Positions 10,902-64,000 of a stretch of 64,000 nt of DNA are shown one piece after another. The notes below the pieces were generated by a model that was not told the DNA's origin, ran no database searches, and worked only from the letters and a program-made list of their open reading frames with translations. A program made the translations under genes and the position numbers. The stretch lies in contig JBDSGJ010000005.1 of NCBI GenBank assembly GCA_039919075.1, positions 46,927-110,926 on the forward strand, written 5' to 3'. The stretch comes from Sphingomicrobium sp. GTDB taxonomy: Bacteria > Pseudomonadota > Alphaproteobacteria > Sphingomonadales > Sphingomonadaceae. Position 1 is the stretch's first letter. Each line of letters opens with the position of its first letter.

Positions 10902-10906
10902 GCAGC

Positions 10907-11029
10907 TTCCATCGAGACCGGCTGAGGGACAGGCCCGCAGAAGCCGGGGCAACCACATGATGTGCCAACAGGTACGCCATGCACGGTGCCAAGTCCTGCG
11001 GGGACGCATGAGTCCACCGGCAGATGGTC
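10907..11029 (+). ncRNA. SAM-I (S-box) riboswitch
   Basis: P1 CCATC(10909-13)/GATGG(11023-27); kink-turn and pseudoknot core GAGGGACAGGCCC..GAAGCC.GGCAACC; GGTGCCAAGTCCTGC; lies upstream of methionine biosynthesis genes. Confidence 0.85.
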
Positions 11030-11108
11030 GTGAGTCGTCACTCAAGTGGCGACCTTGCGCTATCGGTCGCCCCGCATGCCTCGATCAACGGAGGTGAATG
11101 CGGACGAG

Positions 11109-47941: not shown

Positions 47942-48183
47942 ACGGCTTTCGAATATGGCACCGTCCGCTTTCCACCAAAAGCAGCCGGCTCTCCCCGATT
48001 TCCCTGTCCTACAGCACCCCGTTTGTGCGACAGATTCCCATCGCGAGTCATTCGCGTCTGCTCTTTCTTCCTTGCCGAAACCGCCCTGGGTGAAATCGCT
48101 CCACGAGTGCGAACATGTGTGAACATTCGCGGGCCCGCCAGCGCCCACTTTCGCTCCGCCGCGATCCCCCCTAGACCCGCCCC

Positions 48184-48408
48184 ATGCTCGCCATGTGCCC
48201 CGATTGTGAACGCTGCGGCGCCGACCTGCCTGCCTCGGCGGCAGGCGCGTTTATCTGTTCGTTCGAATGCACCTTCTGCGCCGAGTGTGCCGAGGCGCTT
48301 GACGATCGCTGTCCCAATTGCGGGGGTGAGCTGGTCGATCGTCCGGCGCGGTCGAAGGCTAATCTCGCCAAACATCCCGCCTCGACGGAGCGGAAATTCG
48401 CCTCGTGA
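48184..48408 (+). CDS. DUF1272 family protein
   Basis: CERC...ICSFECTFCAECAE...CPNCGGELV.RP. Confidence 0.85.
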   Translation: MLAMCPDCERCGADLPASAAGAFICSFECTFCAECAEALDDRCPNCGGELVDRPARSKANLAKHPASTERKFAS

Positions 48409-49580
48409 GGACGCCGCGCATTCTCGTCATAGCTGGCTCGGACTCCGGTGGGGGCGCGGGGATCCAGGCGGATATCAAGACGATCACCATGCTCGGCGGG
48501 CATGCGATGACCGCGATCACCGCCATCACCGCGCAGAACACGCTCGGCGTGAGCGCGGTTCATCCGGTGCCGACCGAAATTGTGCTGGCGCAGATCGACG
48601 CGGTGGTCGGCGACATCGGGGTCGACGCGATCAAGGTCGGGATGATCGGCAGCGCCTTTACCGCGACACAGGTGGCGCTTCGGCTGGCGAGTATCGACGT
48701 ACCGATCGTGTTCGATCCGGTGATGATCGCGACCAGCGGGGCGGCGCTGGCCGACGAGGCGACGATCGCGGCGTTCGGGCTGCTGATGGACGTCGCGACG
48801 CTTACCACCCCCAATCTGCCGGAACTCGCGCGATTGACCGGCAACGAGGACCCAATCGCAGCCGGGCTGGCGCTGGTCGGGCGCCATGGCGGCGCGGTGC
48901 TGGTCAAGGGCGGGCACGAGAAAGGCGACGCGCTCGCCGACGCGCTGATCGAGGAGGATAACCTCACCAGCTGGCAGGGTCAGCGGATCGACACGAGCAG
49001 CACCCACGGCACCGGCTGCACGCTGGCCAGCGCGATCGCCTTTCACCTCGGCTGCGGCGAGAGCCTCGCCCGCTCGGTCGAGCGCGCGCGGCATTTCGTG
49101 CGGATGGCGCTGCTCGAGGCGCCGGGATTGGGAGCCGGGCATGGGCCGCTTGGGCAACAGTCGGTGCGGCTCGATGCTGGACCAGAAGCGGGCAACGCGC
49201 TGCGGCTCAATCAGGTGACCGTGACGGGCAGGGATTATGCCGCGATGGTCGCCTTCTATCGCGCGCTGGGGCTCAGGCAGATCGTCGATGCGCCCGACAA
49301 CAATTACGCCCGGTTCGAAAGCGCGGGCGGGGCGACCTTTTCGGTCCAGATCGATCCAGAGGAAGTCATCTCTGAATCGACCGCAGTCTATTTCGAGTGC
49401 GACGACCTCGACCAGCGCGTCGAGCGGCTGGCCCGCGCGGGGATCGCCTTCGAACATGGCCCGCGCGACCAGCCATGGATGTGGCGCGAGGCAAGGTTGC
49501 GCGACCCGGCAGGGAATATCGTCTTTCTCTACAAGGGCGGCGAGGCGCGCCGCTTTCCGCCGTGGCGAATGGCCGAGTGA
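48405..49580 (+). CDS. thiD: HMP/HMP-P kinase ThiD fused to a VOC/glyoxalase domain
   Basis: AGSDSGGGAGIQADIKT, TPNLPE, THGTGCTLAS; C-terminal NQVTV...YFECDDLD...WREARLRDPAGN. Confidence 0.88.
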   Translation: MRTPRILVIAGSDSGGGAGIQADIKTITMLGGHAMTAITAITAQNTLGVSAVHPVPTEIVLAQIDAVVGDIGVDAIKVGMIGSAFTATQVALRLASIDVPIVFDPVMIATSGAALADEATIAAFGLLMDVATLTTPNLPELARLTGNEDPIAAGLALVGRHGGAVLVKGGHEKGDALADALIEEDNLTSWQGQRIDTSSTHGTGCTLASAIAFHLGCGESLARSVERARHFVRMALLEAPGLGAGHGPLGQQSVRLDAGPEAGNALRLNQVTVTGRDYAAMVAFYRALGLRQIVDAPDNNYARFESAGGATFSVQIDPEEVISESTAVYFECDDLDQRVERLARAGIAFEHGPRDQPWMWREARLRDPAGNIVFLYKGGEARRFPPWRMAE

Positions 49581-49602
49581 AGGCCAGCCGCAGCACATCC
49601 AT

Positions 49603-49682
49603 CATCCCGGGCCCGACCCGGGACCTACCTATCTTTCTTGGCCTGGTGCAAGATAAAGGTAGGCCCCGGATCAAGTCCGGGG
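49603..49682. repeat. REP-like composite palindrome (casposon target, left part)
   Basis: Hairpins TCCCGGG-ccga-type/CCCGGGA, CCTACCT...AGGTAGG and CCCCGGA-TCAAG-TCCGGGG; continues as CCGGATCAAGTCCGGGGTGACG at 63486. Confidence 0.75.
49666..49680 (+). repeat. Left target-site duplication CCGGATCAAGTCCGG
   Basis: Identical to 63486-63500. Confidence 0.9.
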
Positions 49683-49722
49683 GGTATAGTGATATGACGA
49701 AATCGATGGGTAGGTGACCACA
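49681..49722 (+). repeat. Left terminal inverted repeat
   Basis: GGGGTATAGTGATA-N19-GTGACCACA. Confidence 0.9.
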
Positions 49723-49937
49723 GTCCGCATTGGCTGTGCGGCGTTTTGTTATCAGCGCGGTAGCTCTGTAAGCGGCCCGTCGGCTCGCCTCACCTCGTCG
49801 GCGTGACCGTGACGGAAACAGCACCAATTCTTCAATGGATAGTTTTGTTGTTAATTATTGGCACTCCAGCTTCCTTTCCGCTCGCAGACCTGCTTAACAT
49901 TGTTGCGCTGCACGTGTTTTTTGGAAGGACGCCTAAA

Positions 49938-50162
49938 ATGAGGCTACTGCGATCGCTAGCCTTCGCGACGGTCGTTTGTAGTGCGTCTTCGGCGCTTGCT
50001 ACGGAAACGATTGCATATACTTATGATGCACGAGGCCGGGTGATAAAGGTCGTTCGGACGGGTACGATAAATAACAACCTCACCTACGATTACACCTTCG
50101 ACAAACCCGACAATCGGACCCGGGTTAAGGTGACTAATTCGCCAAATCCTCCGCCGCCATAA
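49938..50162 (+). CDS. Small secreted single-YD-repeat protein
   Basis: Signal peptide MRLLRSLAFATVVCSASSALA, then ETIAYTYDARGRVIKV...YTFDKPDNRT. Confidence 0.7.
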   Translation: MRLLRSLAFATVVCSASSALATETIAYTYDARGRVIKVVRTGTINNNLTYDYTFDKPDNRTRVKVTNSPNPPPP

Positions 50163-50203
50163 TCACTAACTGTTTTTTTTCGGCTGTGTGGGGGGGGCGA
50201 GTG

Positions 50204-53200
50204 ATGTTGGAATTTCGTCGGGTCAGCTTATTGCCCGCAAAGCGGCTTTTTTCGCTTGCCGCGCTTCTCTCGATTGCCCTCGCCGCCCCGAGCCATGGGC
50301 AAAGCGCGGGACCCGTAGCCAGCCCGCCTACTCGGCTAAACATCGATCAAAATGGTGTCGATGTTGTGTCGGGCACATTCGATATCCAACAAACCGATGT
50401 GGCCATCGGTCCACCCACGGGCGGCCTTCAGTACGTTCGAACGTCACGCGGTAGCGGCTGGCTAAACCCGTATTTCGGGACAATTAAAGTTTCAGGGTCG
50501 CAACGGATTGTCAGTATCGGCGGGCAGTCAACCACCTTCACGCTGACCGGTTCGGTCTACGTTTCGGATCAGGGCACCGGTGCCACGCTGGCCTACAACT
50601 CCTCAACACTCATTTATACATATACAACGCCTAATGGCGTTGTGGCGACCTTCGAGCCATTGATAAACACGAAAGTCCAATACACCGCTTACGCCGCGAC
50701 GTTAACAAAGCTCAAGTATCCGTCGGGTCTTGAACTCACAATGACCTACCGATTCCAAAATAACTGTGTTCGGGTCGGTAGTATTTGTGACGGTGGGGCT
50801 ACCAAGCGCGTTGCGCGTCTTCAATCGGCTAACTCGAATACGGGCTACCAACTAAAATTCGAATATGCCTACAATCCCAGTGATACACCGCCGTTCGATG
50901 TCGATCTCCTTGATAGCTGGTACCAACTCACCAGCGTCACGGGCCTCAATAACGCAGTCGAATATTGCGCGCCCTCCAGCAGTGTTTGCACCTACGTCAA
51001 TAGCTGGCCCAAGGCGCAGTACACAACTGACGGGCTGCAGGTTACGGACCCGCTCAATCGAGTGACCAAATACACTAAGGTAGCCAGTCGAATCACCGCC
51101 GTTCGGCGACCGTCGAGTGCCACAGATAACCTCACGCTGAGCTACGATGCGAATGCGCGGGTCGCCACTTTTTCAGACGGCGCTGGGGGTTGGACGTACG
51201 GCTACTCCGATGTGGGCAACGTCCGCACCACGACCGTCACGGATCCCGCCGGACATAACCGCATTATCGTTTCCGATCTTACATTGCTTCGTCCTACCGC
51301 AATCACGGACGAACTGGGTCGCACTACCAACTATCAATATGATGCGAATGGCCGTGTCACACGCGTCACACTTCCAGAGGGTAATTATACCAGTTTCACT
51401 TACGACGCGCGTGGGAACGAGACCCAGGCGACTTCGGTTGCGAAGGCGGGTTCGGGCTTGACTGATATAGTCGCCACCGCCAGCTATCCAGCAACGTGCA
51501 CGAATGTTGTCACATGTAACCAGCCGTCGTCGGCAACGGATGCTCGAGGAAACACCACCGACTATGTTTACGACCCGACTCATGGCGGTGTGACGAGCGT
51601 AACGTTACCTGCCCCGTCAGTTGGTGCGGTACGGCCGCAAACCCGATTCAGCTACACGCCTCTCTACGCTTGGTACAAGAACAGTGCAGGCACGATCGTC
51701 CAGGCGACATCGTCAGTTTACGAGCCTACCTCGACGTCGTCTTGCCAGTCGCTTGCTAGCTGCGCGGGCGGGTCCGATGAGGTCAAGCGAACGTTGACCT
51801 ACGGCACGTCGGGAGTCGCGAACAATCTTCTTCCGACAACATCATCGTCAGGGTCAGGGGATGGCCTACTAACTTCGACGACCACAAGTGTGTGGGATAT
51901 GTATGGTAACCCCTTCACGGTAGACGGGCCACTTGCCGGAACGGCAGACACGACGCGATTTCGGTATGACCTCGCACGTCAATTGACTGGAGTCGTCGGG
52001 CCGGATCCCGACGGCGCGGGCTCACTCAAAAATCGTGCAATGAGAAATACCTACAATCTCGATGGCCAGACGACATTAGTGGAGCGCGGCACTGTCAACA
52101 GTCAAAGCGATCCTGACTGGACGGCCTTCGCGACCTTGCAACAGGTTGCCACCAGCTACGACGCTCAGGGGCGGCGGGTAAAGGAAAGCGCGACCGCTGG
52201 CGGGACGACCTATGCGGTCACGCAATACAGCTACGACAGTATGAGTCGCGCCGATTGCACAGCAGTACGGATGAACAGCGCGGTGTTCGGTTCGCTGCCA
52301 GCCTCGGCCTGCACCGCTGGAACGCCGGGAAGCTTTGGAGCGGATCGAATCAGCAAGATGACTTACGATTGGGCGAGCGAACCTACGATATTGCAGTCCG
52401 CGCTTGGCACTGTCGACCAGGCCAATGACGTGACGCTGACTTACAGCAACAATGGCAAGAAAGCCACTTTGACGGACGCAAACGGAAATCTCACAACCAA
52501 TGAATATGACGGCTTCGATCTGCTGCTGAAAACGCGCTTTCCCTCGCCCACCGTGCCCGGAACGAGTTCGACGACGGACTATGAGCAGGCAACTTATGAT
52601 CCGGCGGCAAACGTAACGCAGAGACGTCTGCGTGACGGGCAGCTGATTGGCCTTACTTACGACGCACTCAATCGCGTCACAGCCAAGGATTTGCCGGGAG
52701 CCGAACCCGACGTCGCCTACACGTATGACAATCTGGGGCGCTTGTTGACTGCATCCCAGACTGGCCAGACGCTAACCTACTCATACGACGCACTTAGCCG
52801 CACCTTGTTGCAAGGTGGGCCGCTCGGGACAATGGCAACGCAATGGGACCTGGCCGGGCGGCGCACGCGGCTGACCTATCCGGACGCCTTCTACGTCACC
52901 TACGACAATCTTGTCACCGGTGAGGTGACAGCCATCCGCGAAAATGGAGCGGTCTCGGGCATCGGTGTACTGGGGGCGTACGCGTACGACAATCTGGGGC
53001 AGCGCTTGTCGCTTGTCAGAGGGAACGGAACTGCCAGCACTTATGGCGATGACTCAGTATCGCGCTTGATCTCGCTAGCGCATGACCTGTCGGGGACGAA
53101 CAATGACCTTACGGTGGGCCTAACCTACTCACCTGCAGCGCAGATTGCGACACGGACAGCGAGCAACGATCTTTATGCGTGGGGCGGGCATTATAATCGC

Positions 53201-54409
53201 GACATCATCGAAACGCCCAATGGATTGAACCAGTTGACTGTTCAGGGAGCAACATCACTGACCTATGACGGTCGCGGCAACACGTCGGCGGTGGGCGCTG
53301 CGAGCTATGGTTATTCGTCGGAGAATCTCCTGACTTCCGGTCCCGCCGGAGTGACTCTCAACTACGATCCGGCGCAGCGGTTGTATCAGACGGTGGGCGC
53401 CTCGACGACGCGGTTCGGCTATGATGGCGTGGAGATGATCGGGGAATATGATGGCAGTGCCGCGCTGCAGCGGCGCTATGTGCGCGGGCCGGGCAGCGAC
53501 GAGGTCCTTGTATGGTACGAAGGCAGTGGCACGGTCGATCGGCGCTGGGTCTATCAGGACGAGCGCGGCTCGACGATCGCCATCGCCAATGCCAGTGGTG
53601 CGCTCACCAATGTGTTGAGCTACGATGAATATGGCTCCCCGGCGACGGCTAATGTCGGGCGGTTTCAGTATAGCGGACAAATGTGGTTGCCCGAGCTTGG
53701 AATGGCCTATTACAAGGCGCGCATCTACGCGCCCGGTCTCGGGCGATTCATGCAGACCGACCCGATCGGCTATGCTGCTGGGATGAATCTCTACGCCTAT
53801 GTCGGGGGCGACCCCGTCAACTTCGGAGACCCTGACGGATTGTGCAGCAACAAGATCGCCGAGACCACCGACCCGAAGTGCCTTGCGCAAGACGGCAATG
53901 GAGGAATCTGGGATCGCGGGGAGTGGCGTCCGGATATACCTGTGGTGGGCAAGCCCTTCCAGCCTGGCTTTAGCGCGGGGACGACGTTTGGATCGGCGGT
54001 CGGCTATCAAATTCCTAGCGGCAACGGGAACGCAGGGACCGGCGTCGAAATGGCTTGCGTTGGACCGCTAAGAGCGCTTGCTGGAGCGTGTGCTCGCGCC
54101 TTGAACGACGTATTGAAGAGAGTTCTTCCTGAGGTAAAAGTGCCCACGCTGCCACCCGGTGTGACGCCCCGGCAATTCGGTGACGCGGCAGGCTTCGGCC
54201 GGTCACTAAAGGACCTACCCCTGCGGAGTGCAGACGACGTAGCAAACTCTGCAAACAGACTTCAGTCGATGGGTTTTACATCCAACGACGTCGCAGCGTG
54301 GCGGAATTTCTACCAGGATCAGTCATGGCGGGTGCCACAGAATCTCAGTGCGGCACATAGAGCCGGCCTTCTGGACAGAATATGGTGGAACATGAAGCTC
54401 CCATTTTGA
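50204..54409 (+). CDS. RHS/YD-repeat polymorphic toxin with signal peptide
   Basis: Many YD repeats (YDANGRVT, YDALNRVT, YDNLGRLL); core end GRFMQTDPIGY...NLYAYVGGDPVNFGDPDG followed by a variable C-terminal domain of about 190 aa. Confidence 0.92.
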   Translation: MLEFRRVSLLPAKRLFSLAALLSIALAAPSHGQSAGPVASPPTRLNIDQNGVDVVSGTFDIQQTDVAIGPPTGGLQYVRTSRGSGWLNPYFGTIKVSGSQRIVSIGGQSTTFTLTGSVYVSDQGTGATLAYNSSTLIYTYTTPNGVVATFEPLINTKVQYTAYAATLTKLKYPSGLELTMTYRFQNNCVRVGSICDGGATKRVARLQSANSNTGYQLKFEYAYNPSDTPPFDVDLLDSWYQLTSVTGLNNAVEYCAPSSSVCTYVNSWPKAQYTTDGLQVTDPLNRVTKYTKVASRITAVRRPSSATDNLTLSYDANARVATFSDGAGGWTYGYSDVGNVRTTTVTDPAGHNRIIVSDLTLLRPTAITDELGRTTNYQYDANGRVTRVTLPEGNYTSFTYDARGNETQATSVAKAGSGLTDIVATASYPATCTNVVTCNQPSSATDARGNTTDYVYDPTHGGVTSVTLPAPSVGAVRPQTRFSYTPLYAWYKNSAGTIVQATSSVYEPTSTSSCQSLASCAGGSDEVKRTLTYGTSGVANNLLPTTSSSGSGDGLLTSTTTSVWDMYGNPFTVDGPLAGTADTTRFRYDLARQLTGVVGPDPDGAGSLKNRAMRNTYNLDGQTTLVERGTVNSQSDPDWTAFATLQQVATSYDAQGRRVKESATAGGTTYAVTQYSYDSMSRADCTAVRMNSAVFGSLPASACTAGTPGSFGADRISKMTYDWASEPTILQSALGTVDQANDVTLTYSNNGKKATLTDANGNLTTNEYDGFDLLLKTRFPSPTVPGTSSTTDYEQATYDPAANVTQRRLRDGQLIGLTYDALNRVTAKDLPGAEPDVAYTYDNLGRLLTASQTGQTLTYSYDALSRTLLQGGPLGTMATQWDLAGRRTRLTYPDAFYVTYDNLVTGEVTAIRENGAVSGIGVLGAYAYDNLGQRLSLVRGNGTASTYGDDSVSRLISLAHDLSGTNNDLTVGLTYSPAAQIATRTASNDLYAWGGHYNRDIIETPNGLNQLTVQGATSLTYDGRGNTSAVGAASYGYSSENLLTSGPAGVTLNYDPAQRLYQTVGASTTRFGYDGVEMIGEYDGSAALQRRYVRGPGSDEVLVWYEGSGTVDRRWVYQDERGSTIAIANASGALTNVLSYDEYGSPATANVGRFQYSGQMWLPELGMAYYKARIYAPGLGRFMQTDPIGYAAGMNLYAYVGGDPVNFGDPDGLCSNKIAETTDPKCLAQDGNGGIWDRGEWRPDIPVVGKPFQPGFSAGTTFGSAVGYQIPSGNGNAGTGVEMACVGPLRALAGACARALNDVLKRVLPEVKVPTLPPGVTPRQFGDAAGFGRSLKDLPLRSADDVANSANRLQSMGFTSNDVAAWRNFYQDQSWRVPQNLSAAHRAGLLDRIWWNMKLPF

Positions 54410-54427
54410 GGCGAGGGAGATAGATCA

Positions 54428-54631
54428 ATGATAGTGACTATATCGAATGTGGACGATGCTGACTTTTCAGTGGTTGTGGAGCCGTACGCCGAAGAGCGAC
54501 CGTTGCCAAGGAAGTCCTCAATCAAGATCGAAATCTTATCAATTGCATTGAGTGATTATGAGATTGTTGTTGGCGATGCTGTTATATCTTTATTTATACC
54601 ATCGGATGCAAAGTATAAGTTTATCGACTGA
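54428..54631 (+). CDS. Candidate immunity protein
   Basis: Acidic 67-aa ORF with a GGGAG RBS, 18 bp after the RHS stop, AT-rich. Confidence 0.6.
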   Translation: MIVTISNVDDADFSVVVEPYAEERPLPRKSSIKIEILSIALSDYEIVVGDAVISLFIPSDAKYKFID

Positions 54632-54762
54632 TACAAGCAATTAACCAAGTTGATCTATTCGTATATATGCAAACCCAGTTAGAATTTATTTTATGCAAAG
54701 GATGGAAACGTTCGCTTTAACAAATGGTCAATTAACCCATTGTAGCTTGATCTTGCAATCGG

Positions 54763-57700
54763 TCAGGTTTTGGAGGGGGGACTACACGGCACTGTGTGGG
54801 GAGACTCCGGTGCCGTTTCGGAACCATGGGTTGTGTGGGTTGAGCGCTCATTCGATGACTTCAGTTTACGTCGCAGGTTCGACGGATCGATCTCAAGCCG
54901 CCGCGCAGTTGCTCGAAGTCCGTCACGTCTCACGGAGACCCGAAGATGGCCAAGTTCGGCCTGCCGTTCGCCACTAAACTTAGCTGCTAGACGTCGGGCC
55001 GTTGGCAATCGCCTCGTTACTTTCTCCGCCAGCTTTTTGATCTTAGGAGATTCCGGGTCTGCCACGAGTGCCTTCAGGCGAGAAATTGGAATGCCAATCA
55101 GCCTCGACCCGGTCGCGTCACCAAAGTCAAACAGATAGGATCGCAGCTCCTCGGCTACTTGGTCGGGTGACGCGCCATAAGCGACGAGGCTGTCTGGATT
55201 GAGCCCAAGGATGGCTAGCCGCTGCCAGTCGTTCGATTCCTTGCCGATATGGATGACGTGACCGGCGTGGATATGGCGCCGCCTCGTCGTGCCCCGGTCC
55301 CAGTAATCCCCGTTTAGGAACTTCGACTCAGGTTGAAGATAGTATTGGGCGAGTGCCTCAGCGTAGGTTTTGAGCGCGTCACTCGAAATCGGATCACCGC
55401 TGATTCGATCAAATGCCCCCCCTATCGCCTTAGCGTTAGACGAATCGAAGGGCGCAATTGGCCTGATGTCCGTTCGCTTCAACCGCTTCGCCCGGCGTTC
55501 GCTATCGATTACGCTTTCGACCGGCGCATCCTTCTTCGCCGTCATCGCCAGCAAAAAGCCGAATGGCTTCACCTGACTGCGATACGGCTTTCCCTTATTG
55601 AATTTCGAGAACCATTTGAGCAATTCGGGGGTAGTAGCCCCATAGCGGCTAATTGCCGGTCGCCTAAGGCCTGGATGAAAATCCATTGGCACCCTATTAG
55701 GATTGCCGCTCAGTGCAGCACAAATGATTTGATACCAAACATCCGCGTGCCAGCGCTCAATCCCTTTGCCCAAGACGGACCTATCCGGCGCCAGTATTGA
55801 TTTTGGCGCATCCGTTTCTGGATAGGGTGCTAAATGCTGCCCTAAGCCGTGAGCCGATACCTTTCGCATCATCGGCTTTTCGTCCGCTCCTAAATTAAAA
55901 AGAGCATAGCGTTTCGACGATATGGCCCAGCAGAAAAGCGGCTCCGGCAAATTGCTTTGAAGTCCCGAATTCACATCCTCAGTTTTTAGGATCGAACCTG
56001 GAAAACAATAGGGGTTCAGCGCCTCGAACCAATTCACAATCGACGCAACGCGGCTTTCAAATTCGGACGGATTCATCCCATCAGGCTTTGCAATCGCAAT
56101 GCTATCAGTATCGCAAAAAGCCCAATCCATTCCGCTTTCGATTGTCAGCGTCTCGGCAATTGCCAACATTAGCCGAGCGGCGCCTGTAATGAGTGTGCCG
56201 AGCAATGGATGAAAATACGAGCCGGGCATTTCCGATTTATCGGTTTCAAAGCTAAACGGCTCGCACGTAGAGCTATGCACTGTCGTTTTCGATTTGGAAG
56301 CGCGGCTATCGACATTGACCTCGATATAGATTCCATAGCTGACCGAATTGGCCGCAATCTTCAGCGCGTTCTGTTCAGTGTCCAGCGAATCCAATTCATT
56401 GCCAGTCGCCCCGGCCTTCCGGCCCTGAGTGGCCTTTCGCAATTCGATTAGCCGTTTGAAGAAATCGTCTTCGTAAGGTTCGATATGATAGTCCGGATTG
56501 CCAGCGATATCGATCGGTCGGAGACCGTCTTGCGGTATTCCCGCCTCAAACGAGATAGCTTCCAAAACTTCGAGCGATTTGCCGGTCAAAAGCTTTGAAG
56601 CGATGCAGTCCGCCAGCGTGAACCACAGCGGGGTTGCAGAGGTTAGGTGATTGGCGCCGATGGTCGTTTGCGCCTCGCCGCTGTACGCAGCGCGGACTGG
56701 GAAGATTTCCCCCGCCGCTTGGACGCGAACAAGAGTGGTCAGGCCGAGCCAGATTGGCTTGGACTGGAGCACAAGCAAGTCGATCGCTTCCAGCAGCTCC
56801 CTTGTCTCCGTTGTCGAGTCGCGCCACGTAACCCCTTCAGCCGCCACAAATCGCCATAGATTCATGAGCGTGCAAACTGTCGGGTACATCGATAGGAAGT
56901 CGCAAAGGATGATCTGCCGCATCTCGCGCCGAATGCGAACCTCGGAGCGCCCGCCGAAATAGCTGCCCATGATCTTGGCGAGCAGGTGGCGGGGAAATTC
57001 CGGTTGCACGTCGCGCCATGGGCGAACGCCCATTTCCCTGAGATAGCCCTTGCCGATGCTGGCTTCGCTGTAAATTTTCTCTGGTATGGTTCGCGAGAAA
57101 CCAAGCTTGGCGAACCGCCGTTGTAATTCGGCATAGCATTCCCAGGTCGTTTGAACGTCGCCGACCGCATAGCGGACCATATCCTCGGTGATTGGCCCGT
57201 TGAATTCATCGAATTCGATTTTGGGATTGGCTACTTTCAGGAAATTGCCCAAGCCTTGGAGACTAAAGCTTCTAGCAAACAAGGCTGAGGCCAAAGTCTT
57301 GACGTCAATGAAATGCCCGCGCCGGACTGGGATCGCCAGCCCACGATTGCGGTGACCGCGACCGTCCTTTTGACGCATCGGCGCCGAGAAGGCGATTAGG
57401 GCCGATCGGCGGGACAAATGCTTGACTCGGATATTGGGCCAGATTTTTTGCTCGGACAGTTTGAAGGTGAAGGCGCCCCGCATAGGAGCTTTGTCTTGGG
57501 CGAGCGGCGTCTTGGCCGTCCCATGGCTAATCGCTATGCGGGATATATCGAACGGAAGGTTAAATCCGACGATCGTTGCCCGGAGCATATAAGCCCGCTG
57601 GAAAAAGACTTCATCGACGAATTCAGTTCGCGTTCGCAGTTTGAGACCGTGCAAAGCCGCATGCTGACCGATGACCTCAAGTTCGGACGGCAAGACTCCC

Positions 57701-57954
57701 TCAGGATCGTAGAAGATTCCAGCTTCGTCCAATTCTTCGCCGCACCGAAATTGATAGGTGCCGAAGCGGAGCGCTTGCGCCGCATCGGTTGTAGTCTCGG
57801 TATCGAATATCAGCGTGAAGTCAGACGCCGGGAGTGCAGGCTTGCGCTCCTTGCGCGGCGGTTTGTTCGGGTCCGGCAAGATCGTGAACGTCGGTCCGGT
57901 ATACGCCCGCAGCGCGATTGGAAGAAAGTCCGTGATTGGGGGGATGTTGGACAT
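54763..57954 (-). CDS. polB: Family B DNA polymerase (casposon, probably protein-primed type) with C-terminal HTH
   Basis: ExoI FDTETT, ExoII GFNLPFD, ExoIII YAVGD; YFGGRSE; motif A CDFLSMYP; motif B KIAANSVSYG; motif C CDTDS. Confidence 0.93.
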   Translation of the reverse strand: MSNIPPITDFLPIALRAYTGPTFTILPDPNKPPRKERKPALPASDFTLIFDTETTTDAAQALRFGTYQFRCGEELDEAGIFYDPEGVLPSELEVIGQHAALHGLKLRTRTEFVDEVFFQRAYMLRATIVGFNLPFDISRIAISHGTAKTPLAQDKAPMRGAFTFKLSEQKIWPNIRVKHLSRRSALIAFSAPMRQKDGRGHRNRGLAIPVRRGHFIDVKTLASALFARSFSLQGLGNFLKVANPKIEFDEFNGPITEDMVRYAVGDVQTTWECYAELQRRFAKLGFSRTIPEKIYSEASIGKGYLREMGVRPWRDVQPEFPRHLLAKIMGSYFGGRSEVRIRREMRQIILCDFLSMYPTVCTLMNLWRFVAAEGVTWRDSTTETRELLEAIDLLVLQSKPIWLGLTTLVRVQAAGEIFPVRAAYSGEAQTTIGANHLTSATPLWFTLADCIASKLLTGKSLEVLEAISFEAGIPQDGLRPIDIAGNPDYHIEPYEDDFFKRLIELRKATQGRKAGATGNELDSLDTEQNALKIAANSVSYGIYIEVNVDSRASKSKTTVHSSTCEPFSFETDKSEMPGSYFHPLLGTLITGAARLMLAIAETLTIESGMDWAFCDTDSIAIAKPDGMNPSEFESRVASIVNWFEALNPYCFPGSILKTEDVNSGLQSNLPEPLFCWAISSKRYALFNLGADEKPMMRKVSAHGLGQHLAPYPETDAPKSILAPDRSVLGKGIERWHADVWYQIICAALSGNPNRVPMDFHPGLRRPAISRYGATTPELLKWFSKFNKGKPYRSQVKPFGFLLAMTAKKDAPVESVIDSERRAKRLKRTDIRPIAPFDSSNAKAIGGAFDRISGDPISSDALKTYAEALAQYYLQPESKFLNGDYWDRGTTRRRHIHAGHVIHIGKESNDWQRLAILGLNPDSLVAYGASPDQVAEELRSYLFDFGDATGSRLIGIPISRLKALVADPESPKIKKLAEKVTRRLPTARRLAAKFSGERQAELGHLRVSVRRDGLRATARRLEIDPSNLRRKLKSSNERSTHTTHGSETAPESPHTVPCSPPSKT

Positions 57955-58316
57955 TAGAAATCTCCCGAGGGTGTTGGTGCAGAGCGTTCGATAAGCTGTT
58001 CGCCAAAGGTCGTGAGCTTTTCGAGGATGCGTCGAAGCATGTCGGCCAGGCCAAGCAGAAAGCGGCCAATGGCGTGCAACGTCGCATCGGCGTTCGGATC
58101 GAAGGCCGGATGGTCCTTCTGGGTATCGGATAGCTTGCGGTGGCAATTGCGACATGCGATCACGGTGGTGTCATCGCAGCCGAAATCGGCGGCGTGATGA
58201 AGCTCCATGCAGCGCCAGTCATCTTCGCCGCAAATGCAGCAGCTCGGTTCATTCGATCCTAGCGCTTCGAGCCGACGCTGCTTTCGCTGTTCCCACTTAA
58301 GTTGATCTTCGGTCAC
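57954..58316 (-). CDS. HNH endonuclease-like Zn-binding protein
   Basis: CCICG...ELHH...IACRNCHRK; GGAG RBS before the GTG; its stop overlaps the polB ATG (TAATG). Confidence 0.8.
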   Translation of the reverse strand: MTEDQLKWEQRKQRRLEALGSNEPSCCICGEDDWRCMELHHAADFGCDDTTVIACRNCHRKLSDTQKDHPAFDPNADATLHAIGRFLLGLADMLRRILEKLTTFGEQLIERSAPTPSGDF

Positions 58317-58329
58317 GTTAGTTCTCCTT

Positions 58330-58899
58330 TCAAATGATGAGACGGTAGATTTCATGGAAAACTTCATCGCCCTGCGCGGCCATGCGGTGCAGGCGGTTGG
58401 GGTCAGTTTCGAGGGGATGCATCTTGCCATGCACATCGCGGACCGAACGGCCTTCGAAGGGTCGGAGCAGGTCGATATCGTTCGAGTTCAGAAAGGCGCC
58501 GACTGCTGCCGAGTGCTGGCCATTGAGGGAGGCTTGCTCAAAGCCGTCGAGCGTAAGTTCTTTCGAATCGCCCTCAGTTATGACCGTCATGCGACGCGGG
58601 CGGTTGTCGGTGATTTGCCAAAGGCGCCCGGTCCGTTGTGCAAGGGAGTTGTGGCGCAGGAAACGGCGGAATCGCTCGGGTGCGACCCCGGCCTGTTTCG
58701 CAGCGGCGGCTTGGCGACCCGTTTGGCGTAGGAGCTTCAGCGCCGCTTCAAGCTTTTGGTCGGTAATGAAAGGCTGAGCGCGAACGGGCGACTCGATCGA
58801 TCGAGCGTGGCCGCGAGCCTGCGACCGACTCAGGCCGCGCTTGGCGGCGTTCGCGATGCGGCGCTGATATTCAGCCTGATAGTTGCGAGTCGTTGCCAT
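58330..58899 (-). CDS. Hypothetical DNA-binding protein (HTH-like)
   Basis: AAAAKQAGVAPERFRRFL helix-turn-helix-like segment; first gene of the operon with HNH and polB. Confidence 0.6.
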   Translation of the reverse strand: MATTRNYQAEYQRRIANAAKRGLSRSQARGHARSIESPVRAQPFITDQKLEAALKLLRQTGRQAAAAKQAGVAPERFRRFLRHNSLAQRTGRLWQITDNRPRRMTVITEGDSKELTLDGFEQASLNGQHSAAVGAFLNSNDIDLLRPFEGRSVRDVHGKMHPLETDPNRLHRMAAQGDEVFHEIYRLII

Positions 58900-58973
58900 G
58901 CCCCAATTGGAGCTGGAGTCAGGACGCTACGCGAATCGAATAAAGGAAAGAATTACGAACAGTTTTGTCTAGA

Positions 58974-59633
58974 TCAATTCGATTTCCAAAAGACCTTCAA
59001 ATGCCGATCAATAGCTCTATTACTTGGAGCGGAATTCGTAAAAATATGAGGAAACATTATTAGACCATGGCGATGAACAGCGGACGATTGTCGGCCCGGC
59101 TTCAATCCTTCTATTTGACTCTTGATCGATTCTGCGATTGCAAAAACATAGCTTTTAATTGAGGGGCGTCCTATTTTGGTTTCCTGTAGTTCAATGGCCC
59201 CAGCGACACGCACCTTGGCATAACGGTATTCGCCGTCGCGGAATTCTGACTTTCGGTAATCAATAAATTTGTGTTGAAAGAGAAAGGGCGGAACAAGCTC
59301 ATGTGGTGCATCTGACCCTTTTGAGGTGAGAAAACCAATTGCAATTAGCCGACCGCTTTCGAGAGCTTCGATAAATTGGTTTTGCTGACTGCAATATGAT
59401 TCGGTCCTTATCGCCAAATCGACCTGCAAATTTTCTGCGGCCTTAAAAATTAGCTCCGCATCGCTACCGGCAGTCGCGAATTTATGCCGCGAATATTGCG
59501 AATTATCCCTGATTTGGCCTTCAACTTTTGCTAGTCGGGATTCGTCCGGATTTGGCACGAACGTCGCCAATATCTTGCTTAGCGGCGTGCCGCTTTGCCA
59601 CAAACGGGACAGGGTCGCGGTGCTTAGTGGCAT
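58974..59633 (-). CDS. Hypothetical protein (start could extend to 59702)
   Basis: Long open frame in an AT-rich stretch; C-terminal GRPS followed by a helical segment. Confidence 0.6.
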   Translation of the reverse strand: MPLSTATLSRLWQSGTPLSKILATFVPNPDESRLAKVEGQIRDNSQYSRHKFATAGSDAELIFKAAENLQVDLAIRTESYCSQQNQFIEALESGRLIAIGFLTSKGSDAPHELVPPFLFQHKFIDYRKSEFRDGEYRYAKVRVAGAIELQETKIGRPSIKSYVFAIAESIKSQIEGLKPGRQSSAVHRHGLIMFPHIFTNSAPSNRAIDRHLKVFWKSN

Positions 59634-59729
59634 GAGGGCGGCGGCTGAATAGTCATTGGGAATCCGGTGATAAGGGGCGGATTTTAAAGACCCGTTAACC
59701 ACCTAAACATGATGTGAATTCAGCTCTTT

Positions 59730-60851
59730 ATGTTAAAGGTCGGTATGCTCCATGGAATTGAAATTCGATCCGACGAAATTGCCGACGAGTGGGCGATCCG
59801 CTCTGAGTTCTGGCAAGGCGAAGCGGCTTCCCCGAAACGGGTTCGTCGCAAGCGAGAGCGCAACGCGCAACCCTTAATTTTATGCGGACATGGCGTGTCG
59901 CTCCGGATTGAAAATGGCGCGCTCGTAATTCGGGACGGCTTCACGCATTACCCACAAGAGCAGGCGCGGTATCGGTTTTTCCCACGCGACCTAGAGCTTC
60001 CAACGCGCATTCTCTTGCTGGACGGTAGTGGAACCCTCTCGTTCGACGTATTGAACTGGCTTGCCGACCAAGGCGTTGCACTGGCCCGCATCAAATGGAC
60101 TGGCGAGGTCGCGACAGTGGCGGGCGGGAATGGTTACGCGGCGGACCCCGCGAAATTGGATTGGCAGAAGGAAACTCGTGGCAACCCCGCGAAACGCCAC
60201 GCTTTTGCAGCCAATCTTATTCGCCTGAAAGTTGTTGCCAGCCTCGATACGCTTGAGCGCTGCATCCCGGACACTCGCGCCCGCCAAATGGCGACCGGAA
60301 AAGCAAGGGCGGCGATCGAACGACTCCAAGTCGAAGTTTTCCCTGACTTGAATGCGATATTTGCGGTCGAAGGTGAGTGTGCGTCATCCTACTTCGCGGC
60401 GTGGCACGGACTGCCGGTTCATTGGATTGGGCTTTCTAGGCGTCCCGTTCCCAATGATTGGCAGTGCTACTCGGGGCGCAGCTCGCTCGCAGTTGGCATC
60501 AAACCGGAGAACCGGAACGCCTCACACCCTATCAACGCGATGTTGAATTACGCTTACGCGGTGAAACTCTCGCAGCTTCAAATCGACACGATCGCGGGCG
60601 GGTTCGATCCCAGACTGGGGATCATGCATAACAGTCACAAGGGCACCCCGGCGCTGGTTTTGGATTTCATCGAGCTAGAGAGGCCCCGCGTTGACGCAAA
60701 GATATTGGAACTGGTCGCAACCCGCAAATTTGCGGCGGCTGATTTCATCGTAAAGGATGATGGTGTCTGTCGCCTGTCGCCGCAGCTAGCGCGGGCCGTC
60801 GCCATCCTTACGGTCCAATGCAAACCGTTTGGACTTCCGACCACGCTTTAA
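59730..60851 (+). CDS. cas1: Stand-alone Cas1 (casposase)
   Basis: Cas1 catalytic-type motifs EGECASSYF, INAMLNYAY, GFDPRLGIMH, LVLDFIELERPRVD; N-terminal LRIENGALVI beta domain; no cas2 or array nearby. Confidence 0.92.
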   Translation: MLKVGMLHGIEIRSDEIADEWAIRSEFWQGEAASPKRVRRKRERNAQPLILCGHGVSLRIENGALVIRDGFTHYPQEQARYRFFPRDLELPTRILLLDGSGTLSFDVLNWLADQGVALARIKWTGEVATVAGGNGYAADPAKLDWQKETRGNPAKRHAFAANLIRLKVVASLDTLERCIPDTRARQMATGKARAAIERLQVEVFPDLNAIFAVEGECASSYFAAWHGLPVHWIGLSRRPVPNDWQCYSGRSSLAVGIKPENRNASHPINAMLNYAYAVKLSQLQIDTIAGGFDPRLGIMHNSHKGTPALVLDFIELERPRVDAKILELVATRKFAAADFIVKDDGVCRLSPQLARAVAILTVQCKPFGLPTTL

Positions 60852-61085
60852 GCCCGCTTCCAAGGCACCCCCCTCAGCAAGCGGCACGAACAGCTCGCTT
60901 AGGTGAACGCCCAATGTCGCGGCGAGTTTGTCGAGGACATCAACGCTCGGATTCTCCTCAGCGCGTTCCACTCCACCTAAATAGGAACGGTCCACTCCAG
61001 CATCAAAAGCAAGCCGTTCTTGCGAAACATCACTCGCAACGCGAATGCGCCTTAGGTTTCGTGCAATGATATCGCGCCCGCGCAT
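60786..61085 (-). CDS. XRE family HTH regulator
   Basis: NLRRIR...VSQERLA..AGVDRSYLGGVERAEENPSVDVLDKLA. Confidence 0.9.
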   Translation of the reverse strand: MRGRDIIARNLRRIRVASDVSQERLAFDAGVDRSYLGGVERAEENPSVDVLDKLAATLGVHLSELFVPLAEGGALEAGLKRGRKSKRFALDRKDGDGPR

Positions 61086-61174
61086 AGGCAGGCCAAAGCT
61101 ATTTACGGGACATTAAACCACGGGCGATATCCATCTAATTAGAGTTTCAAGGTCACTCTGATGGAGATGTCACC

Positions 61175-61765
61175 ATGTTTTTCCTTCCCCTGCTGTTAGC
61201 GACAATATCCCAAGCCCCTGCTTCCCCTCGTTCCTCGTCCCTCCCCAACGCCGATAATGGTCGAAATGCCAAGGTCATATCTGCAACCCTAGCGAGAGAC
61301 ATAGATGGGGTAGCGCTTGGCGCGTCTATCGGCAGCGTTCGCAAGATGATGACGCTCACGTCGATCGGCGGCGAGCAATTCCAAGGCCGAATGGCGTCAG
61401 TCGATTTTGACCTTGAGTTCACGCCCTTAGGGCGGTTGTTCCGCATAAGCTCGAAACAGAATTTGGGGCAATTCGAGATAGATAAGGATTTCAACCAGAC
61501 CTTAAACCGCAGACTAGCTACAAAATACGGTGTCCCGCGCGGCGCTTCGATCGACACCCGCTATTGGAAGCTAATTCAGGACGTCGAAGATGCCGATGGG
61601 AAACAGCATCCCTTTGTCGTCAACTGGTTGAATGTTGATGCATCGCGCGGCTACGATGGGGTCGAGTTGACGATGACGATGATCGATTTCCGCTACCTCA
61701 TGGCCGATAGGGCCAGATTGAACCACAAACCTCGCAATCAGGCCGAGGGGAATATTTCATTCTGA
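61175..61765 (+). CDS. Hypothetical secreted protein
   Basis: Hydrophobic N-terminus MFFLPLLLATISQAPA; 196-aa open frame. Confidence 0.6.
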   Translation: MFFLPLLLATISQAPASPRSSSLPNADNGRNAKVISATLARDIDGVALGASIGSVRKMMTLTSIGGEQFQGRMASVDFDLEFTPLGRLFRISSKQNLGQFEIDKDFNQTLNRRLATKYGVPRGASIDTRYWKLIQDVEDADGKQHPFVVNWLNVDASRGYDGVELTMTMIDFRYLMADRARLNHKPRNQAEGNISF

Positions 61766-61895
61766 AGTGTCCACTATCACATGACGGACGAGCCGAGCCA
61801 TAGACTGCACGGGCCAATACACTTTAGGTTGCTAAAATCAGTTAGCTTCACAGTAGAATGGCAATTAATTTCTGATATGCTTTGCGACCAGAAGG

Positions 61896-63362
61896 GTGAA
61901 TGATTTGGCCAAAGGCAGACGCAACCAGCGAGTATCCACGGTTTATAAACTCAAACGGTCGCAGGCGACTTTAGATTTTGTGGACGTAGATGTAGCTCGG
62001 GACACGAAGGTCTTTGTTAGCCCGCGTGCGCTCACGCTTATGCAAACAGATTGGGGCGATGGCTGCGTTTCACTCGTTCAAAACTTCTTCGAAACCGTCC
62101 TTCAGCGAATCAAGGATGGAGATGACGCGGGTGCCGAAGCTCTTTTGCAGGAATTAAGGGAGCCTAATGAAACACATCTTGGGCTTTCGAGTAGGGAGTC
62201 GCGCGGCCGCGCGTTGGGCAATGAATCCGCGCATGATGTTTGGTCTGCGCTCAGCCAGAGTGCGGCCGCAAAATCGGGCCTCATTCACGACCTCGAAGAC
62301 ACGGTGCTTCTGATTCACGGTATTGGGGTAGATATTGTCTCGGATGTGACCACCAATATCATACGCGGCCCGTTGATCGCTTACACTCAAGAGCAATGCA
62401 GACAGCTTGGCATTCCGCTCATTGCGGACGTGCCATCGGGACCGATTTGGCACCCGGCAAGGCGAGAATGGATTGCCAAATTTGTTGAACTTCCAATGCC
62501 TAAGACCGGGAAACTTTTGCTTGTTCCAAAGGCGATCGTCCGGCGCACGTCACTTTATGACATGCAGGAGTATTATCGTCATTTCATGCTTGAACACATG
62601 CAACGTGAAGAACTTAAGGCCGGTTCGGCCCTAATAACTATGTTGAAGAAGGGGCCAAAAGTTCACAAAAGCGATCTGATTGATAAGTATGGTGGCGACA
62701 AGAGCGCCGTAATCGAGCAAACGATGAAATATCCCGATGTCTTAGACGACTATCGTCGGGAAAAAGGCAAACGTCCGTTCCTACCCCTCAGTCACGAAGA
62801 CCTCGAAAACCTTGAAGGCAGCTCGCCCGTGGATTGGGATTCGCTCCTAGACGCGGTGACATCGCTGCCGACTGGCACCCAGGACGCATCTTCCTACGAA
62901 AAGGCTATCGAAGCGCTTCTTACTGCACTCTTTTACCCCGATTTGGTTCATCCTGTATATCAACATGAAATCCATGACGGTCGAAAACGGATCGATATCA
63001 AATATACCAATATGGGCGGAGCCGGATTCTTCGCTTGGTTATCTAGGCACTACACAGCGCCCCAAGTTTTCGTGGAATGCAAAAATTACGGTGGCAAAGT
63101 CGCAAACCCAGAACTCGATCAGCTCGCTGGTCGGTTTGGTCGCAGTCGAGGCAATTTCGGAATTCTTGTTTGCCGTCAGTTCGATAACACGGCTCGATTT
63201 CAGCAAAGCTGTTGCGATACCGCTAGGGACGATCGGGGTTATATCGTTGCACTCGACGACGACGATTTGAAGGCACTCGTGGAGGCTCGCAAGGCCAATG
63301 ACGAAGAAGTTTATCGAGATTTACCCCTACTAAGAGAGCGTTTCGAGCAACTCATTGCATAG
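61896..63362 (+). CDS. Hypothetical protein with a C-terminal PD-(D/E)XK restriction-endonuclease-like domain
   Basis: YEKAIEALL...RIDIKY...VFVECKNYG...LDQL.GRF motif order. Confidence 0.7.
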   Translation: MNDLAKGRRNQRVSTVYKLKRSQATLDFVDVDVARDTKVFVSPRALTLMQTDWGDGCVSLVQNFFETVLQRIKDGDDAGAEALLQELREPNETHLGLSSRESRGRALGNESAHDVWSALSQSAAAKSGLIHDLEDTVLLIHGIGVDIVSDVTTNIIRGPLIAYTQEQCRQLGIPLIADVPSGPIWHPARREWIAKFVELPMPKTGKLLLVPKAIVRRTSLYDMQEYYRHFMLEHMQREELKAGSALITMLKKGPKVHKSDLIDKYGGDKSAVIEQTMKYPDVLDDYRREKGKRPFLPLSHEDLENLEGSSPVDWDSLLDAVTSLPTGTQDASSYEKAIEALLTALFYPDLVHPVYQHEIHDGRKRIDIKYTNMGGAGFFAWLSRHYTAPQVFVECKNYGGKVANPELDQLAGRFGRSRGNFGILVCRQFDNTARFQQSCCDTARDDRGYIVALDDDDLKALVEARKANDEEVYRDLPLLRERFEQLIA

Positions 63363-63443
63363 GACGGATTGCATCTGGCTAGCGGCCACCAAAGTTCAAA
63401 TGGTCGGGAACGGCGGGCACACCGACTACCCCATCGCCGCAAG

Positions 63444-63485
63444 TGTGGTCACACTCGCTCGGTTCAGCAGCTATCACTATACCCC
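63444..63485 (-). repeat. Right terminal inverted repeat
   Basis: TGTGGTCAC-N19-TATCACTATACCCC, the reverse complement of the left-end architecture. Confidence 0.9.
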
Positions 63486-63500
63486 CCGGATCAAGTCCGG
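63486..63500 (+). repeat. Right target-site duplication CCGGATCAAGTCCGG
   Basis: Identical to 49666-49680. Confidence 0.9.
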
Positions 63501-63518
63501 GGTGACGAAGAGAGGTAG

Positions 63519-64000
63519 ATGAAACGCCCCTGTTTCAAGATCGAGCGCCAGTTCGCCGAACCGCTGGCCGGGGTCGACGAAGCGGGCTGCGCGCCGCTCG
63601 CCGGGCCCGTCGTGGCGGGGGCGGTTGTGCTCGACCGCGATCATTTTCCACGCGGGATCGATGACAGCAAGAAGCTCGATCTCGAAACGCGCGAGGCGAT
63701 CTTCGGGCGATTGCAGAAGGTCGCGCGGATCGGGGTCGGGATTGCCTCAGTGGAGGAGATCGACACGCTCAACATCTATTGGGCGCGAATGCTGGCGATG
63801 AAGCGCGCGGTGGAAGCGCTGGGATTCGAACCGGCCTTCGTGCTGGTCGACGGCAACCGCCTGCCGCGCTGGGAGCGGACCGAGGCCAAGGCGATCGTCA
63901 AGGGCGACACCAAGTGCCGTTCGATCGCCGCCGCCTCCATCGTTGCCAAGGTCACGCGCGATCGGATCATGCTTGAGCATAGCCGGACCTATCCGGGCTA
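63519..64000 (+). CDS. rnhB: Ribonuclease HII (partial, runs off the window end)
   Basis: Manual translation: AGVDEAG..PLAGPVVAGAV, DDSKKL, LVDGN, KGD....SIAAASIVAKVTRD. Confidence 0.95.
   Translation, partial: MKRPCFKIERQFAEPLAGVDEAGCAPLAGPVVAGAVVLDRDHFPRGIDDSKKLDLETREAIFGRLQKVARIGVGIASVEEIDTLNIYWARMLAMKRAVEALGFEPAFVLVDGNRLPRWERTEAKAIVKGDTKCRSIAAASIVAKVTRDRIMLEHSRTYPG

Follow-up and report, generated by a model that had tools for sequence, protein, structure and literature searches.

Casposons, self-synthesizing DNA transposons, are the proposed ancestors of the adaptation machinery of CRISPR (short palindromic repeats that are clustered and regularly interspaced). To our knowledge, all casposon biochemistry and in vivo transposition data come from three archaeal elements. 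The bacterial members fall outside that group; the literature on family 3 comprises four elements described in 2014 (PMC4046053) and four more in 2016, one of them from Sphingomonadales (PMC4779613). Published family 3 includes HenMar-C1 and HenMar-C2, HypCY54-C1, NitAL212-C1, and CitBat-C1 of Citromicrobium bathyomarinum (Sphingomonadales) (PMC4046053, PMC4779613), and all bacterial casposons are stated to be ones that “are inserted within intergenic regions,” with no more specific target given (PMC4779613). Here, a window of 64,000 nucleotides (the whole stretch of DNA analyzed, from contig JBDSGJ010000005.1 of Sphingomicrobium sp.) was examined. Its segment 49681–63485 is read, with a probability of roughly 90%, as a complete family 3 casposon lying in a GC-rich palindrome of the thiD–rnhB spacer, the palindrome resembling repetitive extragenic palindromic (REP) sequences and miniature inverted-repeat transposable elements (MITEs). 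Like published family 3 members, the element has a bacterial host, an intergenic insertion, a family B DNA polymerase (PolB), possibly of the type termed RNA-primed in those papers, an HNH nuclease, a conserved helix-turn-helix (HTH) protein, and a length within 10–16 kb (PMC4046053, PMC4779613). Its Cas1 lacks fused domains, as in HenMar-C1, and its terminal repeat begins with GGGGTAT, as does that of NitAL212-C1 (PMC4046053). Unlike published family 3, it occurs in a new host lineage, at a new site (thiD–rnhB), and with cargo new to the family, namely an RHS toxin and PDC-M36A. A two-part end motif and dyad-centered duplications of 14–16 bp, defined here over ~40 elements, may be further additions to what has been published.

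Family 2 archaeal casposons (AciBoo-C1, MetMaz-C1) resemble the window element in having a Cas1 integrase, PolB, HNH, and HTH genes, 14–15-bp duplications, and site-specific integration, and the target of the Aciduliprofundum boonei casposon includes the palindromic T-arm of tRNA-Pro (PMC5137440, PMC6614799, PMC10359463). In contrast, the Cas1 of family 2 carries an HTH at its C terminus and is directed to tRNA genes, at their 3′ ends, with a leader-like motif upstream. Cas1 of the window casposon carries no additional domain, and its targets, dispersed palindromes of REP/MITE-like type, include no tRNA. Tandem insertions are common to Methanosarcina casposons and the lineage described here, and excision of MetMaz-C1 leaves a single target copy, matching the empty sites below.

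The element spans 13,805 bp (49681–63485) between a thiD–glyoxalase fusion gene (48405–49580) and rnhB (from 63519). The start codon of rnhB follows 33 bp downstream of its right end, and GC content changes from ~0.65 in the flanks to ~0.52 within the element. The boundaries carry the following features.

49666–49680, no strand: left copy of the target-site duplication, CCGGATCAAGTCCGG, the center of the host palindrome CCCCGGA-TCAAG-TCCGGGG
49681–49694, + strand: left terminal inverted repeat, GGGGTATAGTGATA, obtained by repeat finding; the same 12–14-mer also terminates related elements in ~40 loci
49715–49719, + strand: left subterminal TGACC, separated by a spacer of exactly 20 nt from the left repeat
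63447–63451, − strand: right subterminal TGACC (GGTCA on the + strand), separated by a spacer of exactly 20 nt from the right repeat
63472–63485, − strand: right terminal inverted repeat, reading TATCACTATACCCC on the + strand, the exact reverse complement of the left repeat
63486–63500, no strand: right copy of the target-site duplication, CCGGATCAAGTCCGG, with the rnhB start codon 18 bp downstream

The inverted repeats match at 14 of 14 bp, and their 12-mer core (GGTATAGTGATA / TATCACTATACC) was found only at these two places in 64 kb (0.02 expected by chance). A perfect direct repeat, CCCCGGATCAAGTCCGGGG, spans 19 bp at 49664–49682 and 63484–63502 (two matches versus 0.03 expected in 64 kb), and this combination of direct and inverted repeats around the element was the sole outstanding pair returned by the repeat finder. 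The direct repeat appears to be 19 rather than 15 bp long because the outer GG/CC of the inverted repeats chances to continue the host palindrome. Division into a 14-bp repeat and a 15-bp duplication is correct because two related loci with host flanks unlike the G/C of the repeat (L002 and L127) yield a 15-bp duplication and an end that starts with GGGG. The subterminal TGACC probably forms the other half of a two-part end to which the casposase would bind. Since the last cargo gene is oriented toward rnhB, read-through from the element may now drive rnhB.

Relatives of the insertion locus were gathered by a homology scan with the ThiD protein. In ~50 Sphingomonadales loci thiD and rnhB are adjacent, 3–325 bp apart, as compared to 13.9 kb in the window. 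The closest relative with an empty site, L012 (90% amino-acid identity to the window in ThiD and 94% in RnhB), and a further relative, L015, hold one copy of the duplicated segment, CCGGATCAAGTCC[G/A]G, between the two genes; the segment reads ...GGCAGGTCCCGGATCAAGTCCGGGATGACGAAAG... in the L012 spacer and is similar in L015. The left junction of the window aligns with L012 up to the duplicated segment, and the right junction aligns from the segment onward. Because these relatives show an empty site with a single copy of the 15-mer, the 13.8-kb segment is an insertion. The initial annotation had proposed a search for such an empty site and had held that two repeat copies in element-free relatives would speak against the casposon reading; the relatives carry one copy.

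The empty spacer, as reconstructed by joining 49585–49680 to 63501–63513, is a REP/MITE-like unit of ~90 nt whose two hairpin ends repeat one another in inverted orientation (CGTCATCCCGGGCTTGACCCGGGA ... TCCCGGATCAAGTCCGGGATGACG in L012). Its fold comprises three hairpins (−25.3 kcal/mol, z = −5.2), the target hairpin being one arm of the unit, and copies of the target hairpin are present elsewhere in host DNA with no casposon nearby. A tRNA-like target was also considered, given the likeness of the target-hairpin loop, ATCAAGT, to a tRNA T-loop and the cloverleaf-like fold of the spacer. It was rejected as a general rule: ARAGORN finds no tRNA, and the loops of other target palindromes are unrelated.

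The central part of the element encodes the casposase and the genes that accompany it.

54763–57954, − strand: family B DNA polymerase, 1063 residues (source gene call P0121), its start overlapping the stop of the upstream HNH gene
57954–58436, − strand: HNH endonuclease with CxxC...HH...CxNCH (PHROG HNH endonuclease, 2.4e-4), in 64/82 related loci
58330–58899, − strand: conserved HTH protein of 189 residues, in 71/82 loci, with HTH_28/HTH_23 matches in family members
58974–59702, − strand: protein of 242 residues with no family match, divergent from cas1, semi-conserved (homologues in L003, L004, and L100)
59730–60851, + strand: casposase, a Cas1 homologue of 373 residues with no fused domains (PF01867, 1.5e-30)
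60786–61085, − strand: Xre/Cro-type HTH_3 regulator (PF01381, 3.1e-13; “control protein” models, 2.8e-17), in 22/82 loci

The predicted catalytic residues of Cas1 (E214 or E216, H300, D312, and E315) are invariant in 28 homologues; in alignment to 4N06 and 6OPM, they correspond to the catalytic Glu, to the His within “GFLH,” and to the Asp/Glu within “DLxE.” Among solved structures, the best match is 6OPM, the casposase of Methanosarcina mazei (2.9e-14, over two stretches), and the protein aligns clearly, by eye, with the HenMar-C1 fragment printed in the 2014 supplement. PolB retains all exonuclease and polymerase motifs, namely ExoI FDTE (D51/E53), ExoII NLPFD (N132–D136), ExoIII YxxxD (Y262/D266), motif A DFLSMYPT (D352–T359), motif B KxxxNSxSYG (K532/N536/Y540/G541), motif C DTDS (D615–S618), and KRY (K681-R682-Y683), each invariant at the residues given in parentheses among 24 homologues. 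The polymerase is too divergent for Pfam (PF00136, sub-threshold at 0.0035) but matches the phage polymerase family phrog_1907 at 3e-9. A single-sequence search against PDB sequences returned no match, and a profile of 10 PolB sequences gave weak matches only around motif B, to archaeal PolB. With a low-confidence AlphaFold model as query, the top 50 Foldseek matches were all family B polymerases (E 3e-9 to 7e-7), comprising archaeal PolB, Pol alpha, and large-virus polymerases. The closest matches by sequence and by this model are archaeal PolB and Pol alpha, with no phi29-type polymerase among the matches listed. At the C terminus of PolB (54763–54960, residues ~1000–1032), a helical tail with conserved GLRxTARRLGxDPSNLRR, reading LRxTARRLxxDPSNLRR in the window, resembles an HTH of Fis/NtrC type; a C-terminal HTH on family 2 PolBs was noted in 2014 (PMC4046053).

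The true start of the HNH gene, as judged from homologues, is probably near 58313–58367. The 189-residue HTH protein is the steadiest partner of Cas1 in the lineage. A 223-residue gene of L163 occupies the position of the 242-residue gene (a match by position only), and the HTH_3 gene is convergent with cas1 and overlaps its 3′ end. Compared with their homologues, the core frames all run to full length. The initial annotation had described this segment as a complete casposon between thiD and rnhB with a solo Cas1, a PolB with all its motifs, HNH and HTH genes, intact frames, perfect 14-bp terminal repeats, and a 15-bp flanking duplication. Every one of these features was recovered where it had been placed, the HTH genes numbering two.

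To define the lineage, Cas1 was scanned against one genome per species, giving at least 123 loci of which the best 80 were kept; 82 Cas1 loci (designated by L numbers) were examined overall. The core order PolB-HNH-HTH-Cas1 was found in 66 of the 82, with PolB present in 66, HNH in 64, and the 189-residue HTH protein in 71, all in the same order and orientation. Most loci lacking the core are contigs cut beside cas1. Most hosts belong to the Sphingomonadales (Sphingomonas, Sphingopyxis, Novosphingobium, Sphingobium, Tsuneonella, Porphyrobacter, and Citromicrobium), with Hyphomonas and Hyphomicrobiales as further hosts. The core is a conserved unit in order and orientation across many Alphaproteobacteria. 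Relatives from the reference genera, to which published family 3 casposons belong, i.e., Citromicrobium (L091, 67% Cas1 identity), Henriciella (L156 and L157, 41%), and Nitrosomonas (L159, 38%), share the core and the end type with the window element, which on this similarity, its gene context, and its end sequence is placed as a new member of casposon family 3. Its host is a Sphingomonas-like rhizosphere bacterium; both the flanking genes and the relatives of the element are of Sphingomonadales. The earlier statement that few bacterial members are described holds for the literature (eight elements) but not for databases (at least 123 loci): the family 3 lineage is common in sequence databases, including Sphingomonadales, other Alphaproteobacteria, and cultured strains. 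Among the cultured carriers of related elements are Sphingomonas sp. UV9 (L095), S. cavernae K2R01-6 (L105), Tsuneonella flava MS1-4 (L108), Sphingopyxis sp. JAI128 (L116), Novosphingobium sediminicola DSM 27057 (L118), and Henriciella pelagia LA220 (L157). In the literature searched, casposons are not mentioned together with Sphingomonas. As a class, such elements were described in 2014 and a member from Sphingomonadales in 2016, and the lineage is common in databases; the element is therefore not a rarity. What may be new are the dyad-centered target rule, the two-part end motif, and the cargo-arm architecture.

Ends were searched across the lineage with the motif GGTATAGTGATA (≤3 mismatches), N(14–28), TGACC. 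The motif was found in ~40 loci and is conserved at 54 ends, such that the lineage shares, across genera, a two-part end consisting of GGGGTATAGTGATA, ~20 nt, and TGACC. Nearly all of these ends are preceded by a GC-rich CCCC...GGGG palindrome, the sequence of which differs by site while the inner end is constant (examples are CCCCGGAYYTGATCCGGGG, CCCTCTCCCCACTGGGGAGAGGG, CCCCTGCCTTCGCAGGGG, and CCCCGTGTCAAGCACGGGG). A perfect stem of ≥5 bp centered 9–11 nt outside the 12-mer was observed at 72% of the 54 ends, as compared to 2.3% of random positions and 4.9% of positions after any GGGG. Only in its loop does a palindrome distinguish a direct from an inverted repeat; loops were in direct orientation in 14 of 14 two-ended elements found by the end motif, and also in L091, L156, and L157. 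The direct loop orientation and the empty sites together identify the palindrome as the duplicated target and not as part of the terminal repeat. Duplication length was read only at loci whose flanking host bases are distinct from the repeat's G/C.

L002 (same flanks in L004): odd palindrome, duplication of 15 bp
L127: odd palindrome, duplication of 15 bp
L146: odd palindrome, duplication of 15 bp
L105: even palindrome, duplication of 14 bp
L156: even palindrome, duplication of 16 bp

Where the flanks are unambiguous, the duplicated segment is centered on the dyad, with cuts 7–8 bp to each side and duplications of 14–16 bp. A general rule is tentatively proposed, in which Alphaproteobacterial family 3 casposases choose dyad-symmetric GC-rich palindromes and cut symmetrically 7–8 bp from the dyad, with duplication length following the parity of the palindrome. 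That this rule is both correct and unpublished is given slightly less than an even chance, because it may have been mentioned earlier in the 2016 supplement or in a 2017 review. An additional 4–6 G lie between the target and the GGGG of the repeat at the left junction only of L116 (~1600–1621) and L146 (~1594–1606); these could reflect untemplated addition, slippage, or an assembly artifact.

Rearranged forms were also encountered among the related loci. Back-to-back casposon ends sharing a single target segment, i.e., tandem insertions, are present in L128 (10890–10940) and L132 (~6770–6810). A 2.2-kb mini-element in L162 (9377–11586) has both ends and a duplicated palindrome, CCCCTGCTTTTGCAGGGG, with a partial cas1 only and no PolB, and is likely a deletion derivative or a non-autonomous casposon.

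Alternative explanations were weighed against these data. Cas1 might be a stray CRISPR adaptation gene, its polymerase neighbor coincidental and the island inserted by some other mechanism; indeed, the protein passes the generic cas1 model TIGR00287 (78.9 bits against a cut-off of 71.7), and databases label its homologues “CRISPR-associated endonuclease Cas1.” However, it failed every CRISPR-subtype cas1 model by a wide margin. No cas2 or other cas gene was matched among the ten main frames of the element (Pfam, NCBIfam, and PADLOC; small frames unscanned), which also gave no match to a tyrosine or serine recombinase or a DDE transposase, and neither a tandem array of CRISPR-like period nor an Rfam CRISPR repeat family was found in 64 kb. 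As the initial annotation had regarded cas2 or arrays in the cas1 operon as evidence against a casposon, it is relevant that Cas1 instead adjoins PolB-HNH-HTH in 66 of 82 loci, most of the others being cut by contig ends. A stray CRISPR gene is thus extremely improbable. The palindromes might instead belong to the element as long inverted repeats, the true duplication being ~1 bp. Save in the loop, a palindrome is ambiguous between direct and inverted repeat. The 2014 supplement draws the HenMar-C1 repeat in just this manner, as CCCCCTCTCCCGGATCGGGAGGGGATAAGGG with a 1-nt direct repeat (PMC4046053). Against such an assignment, asymmetric loops are direct on both sides of every two-ended element found by the end motif, the palindrome varies by site whereas the inner end does not, the empty sites L012 and L015 already hold the palindrome, and the same hairpin is found in host DNA far from casposons. 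Inclusion of the palindrome in the element is very improbable, and the palindromic part of the drawn HenMar-C1 repeat is most likely the target.

Several observations weigh against the interpretation of the segment as a complete family 3 casposon inserted into a GC-rich palindrome. The family placement derives from gene context, end sequence, and similarity to elements of the reference genera rather than from a Cas1 tree, and the PolB model has low global confidence (predicted local distance difference test 58, TM ~0.2), making its fold evidence local only. L157 may deviate from symmetry by one base, G/C runs blurring the boundary, and about a quarter of ends lie outside clear palindromes (e.g., L118/L119, L131, and L137). 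Two Novosphingobium elements use the non-palindromic target CCTCCGGCGGGCAAAGGG (L118, 2719–2734 and 14461–14476; L119, ~5271), so the palindrome rule describes a strong but not absolute preference. Within single genomes, co-resident casposons are only 67–79% identical in DNA (~72% for L003 versus L004), indicating separate acquisitions and not recent intragenomic jumps; recent intragenomic copies were sought and rejected on this ground. Finally, no direct sign of present-day movement was seen: Logan contigs of the source rhizosphere metagenome cover the element at ~6x depth, with three runs holding it, and no exact empty-site junction (49680 to 63501) or circular junction was found in contigs of four metagenome runs over 48000–64000. 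This absence of excised forms is weak evidence because contigs drop rare variants. One long skip in the metagenome contigs, from 49567 to 63561 with a 20-nt anchor and undetermined letters in between, represents the thiD–rnhB region of a related organism and not an excision product.

The last two of these findings, together with cargo arms that resemble defense and competition islands, could instead indicate an element that is structurally intact but now immobile, i.e., a fossil or a domesticated cargo island kept for its RHS and defense genes. This explanation is unlikely, if a serious possibility. It must accommodate perfect repeats (14/14) and a perfect duplication (15/15, or 19/19 with the overlap), core frames of full length with invariant catalytic motifs, the limited weight of absence from contigs, and the tandem insertions and mini-element that show movement elsewhere in the lineage. 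A recent insertion of the window casposon would fit its perfect ends and intact frames. Insertion sites differ between genomes across the lineage, and the lineage as a whole moves, as seen in its differing sites, tandem ends, and mini-element.

By analogy with archaeal casposases and CRISPR Cas1, a casposase oligomer would bind the two-part ends and join their 3′-OH groups to both strands of the palindrome at symmetric positions 14–16 bp apart, and gap repair would then give the target-site duplication. PolB would replicate the element, the HNH nuclease and the 189-residue HTH protein would assist end processing or target choice, and the Xre-type HTH protein would regulate cas1. The archaeal basis for such a mechanism is the work on the A. 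boonei and M. mazei casposases (PMC5137440, PMC6614799, PMC10359463).

The proposed reaction is reminiscent of the CRISPR adaptation module, with a homologous Cas1, the same catalytic residues, and two staggered strand transfers that would flank the segment later duplicated. Many CRISPR repeats are palindromic, and inverted-repeat motifs within repeats position the second cut. Unlike CRISPR adaptation, there is no Cas2, array, or leader, the insert is 13.8 kb with fixed ends, and 14–16 bp are duplicated as compared to the 24–47 bp of a CRISPR repeat. With respect to target choice, IS1397 and ISPpu9/ISPpu10 insert into palindromes of REP sequences and bacterial interspersed mosaic elements, which are short, dispersed, GC-rich, extragenic, and safe landing sites. 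Such REP-targeting insertion sequences have DDE transposases and short duplications. The window element shares this choice of target and differs in that its integrase is a Cas1 homologue and the element would be self-replicating. Pipolins are likewise bacterial mobile elements with their own family B polymerase and variable defense cargo, but they have tyrosine recombinases, tRNA attachment sites, and a primer-independent PolB, whereas no such recombinase was matched among the ten main frames of the window element, which is bounded by inverted repeats and a target-site duplication (PMC11551731).

Two arms outside the core are cargo slots, the left holding an RHS cassette and the right a 196-residue protein and a candidate nuclease of PDC-M36A/Mrr-like type.

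49803–50162, + strand: small secreted YD-repeat protein, a frame of 119 residues whose translation contains YTYDARGR and a signal peptide; the RHS cassette begins with this gene
50186–54409, + strand: RHS/YD-repeat polymorphic toxin, 1407 residues (Pfam RHS_repeat, 1.4e-22; TIGR03696 Rhs_assc_core, 2.4e-21)
54428–54631, + strand: frame of 67 residues directly after the RHS toxin, no family match, a candidate immunity gene by position only
61175–61765, + strand: protein of 196 residues with a hydrophobic N terminus, homologues in 5 loci
61896–63362, + strand: Mrr-like nuclease-domain protein of 488 residues, a candidate for anti-phage defense (PADLOC PDC-M36A, 1e-41; Mrr_cat, 9.9e-5; phrog_27295, 7.5e-142)

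The YD-repeat protein likely starts at an internal Met at 49938, and a homologue adjoins the RHS gene in L100. The toxin combines an RHS core with a signal peptide and a variable C-terminal domain. L100 likewise has an RHS gene in the corresponding arm position; the L100 locus as examined stops short of the element's left end, and the gene is only possibly cargo there. Of the closest relatives by Cas1, L163 (83% identity) carries GmrSD in an arm position (175–1884) and a 196-residue gene at the same position as that of the window (a match by position only), and L164 (76% Cas1 identity) carries McrBC and a reverse transcriptase in its arms (1539–4828 and 11823–13430). From their gene content, the arms look like exchangeable slots for defense and competition genes. 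The right end of the L163 casposon is 94 nt from a phage-capsid (PF05065) cluster (11385–12609), and this casposon may lie beside or inside a prophage or gene-transfer-agent cluster. A scan of viral contigs gave one weak match and no sign of virus association.

Elsewhere in the window, and unrelated to the casposon, are the following.

3713–3784, − strand: tRNA gene
10906–11030, + strand: S-adenosylmethionine (SAM) riboswitch (RF00162, 70 bits)

Taken together, the window provides a clean, complete example of a family 3 casposon with its matching empty site. The variable arms (RHS toxin, PDC-M36A, GmrSD, McrBC, and reverse transcriptase) add casposons to the vehicles that move defense and competition genes among soil bacteria. 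The palindrome preference amounts to a concrete target rule that can be tested in cultivable, manipulable hosts, and it has a bearing on the way in which a Cas1 integrase lacking Cas2 measures and recognizes a palindromic target. If true, the rule would be one not described so far for casposons, and the HenMar-C1 ends as published would need correction. It would further supply a genetically tractable bacterial model of palindrome reading by Cas1 in the absence of Cas2, comparable to the reading of a palindromic CRISPR repeat by Cas1-Cas2.

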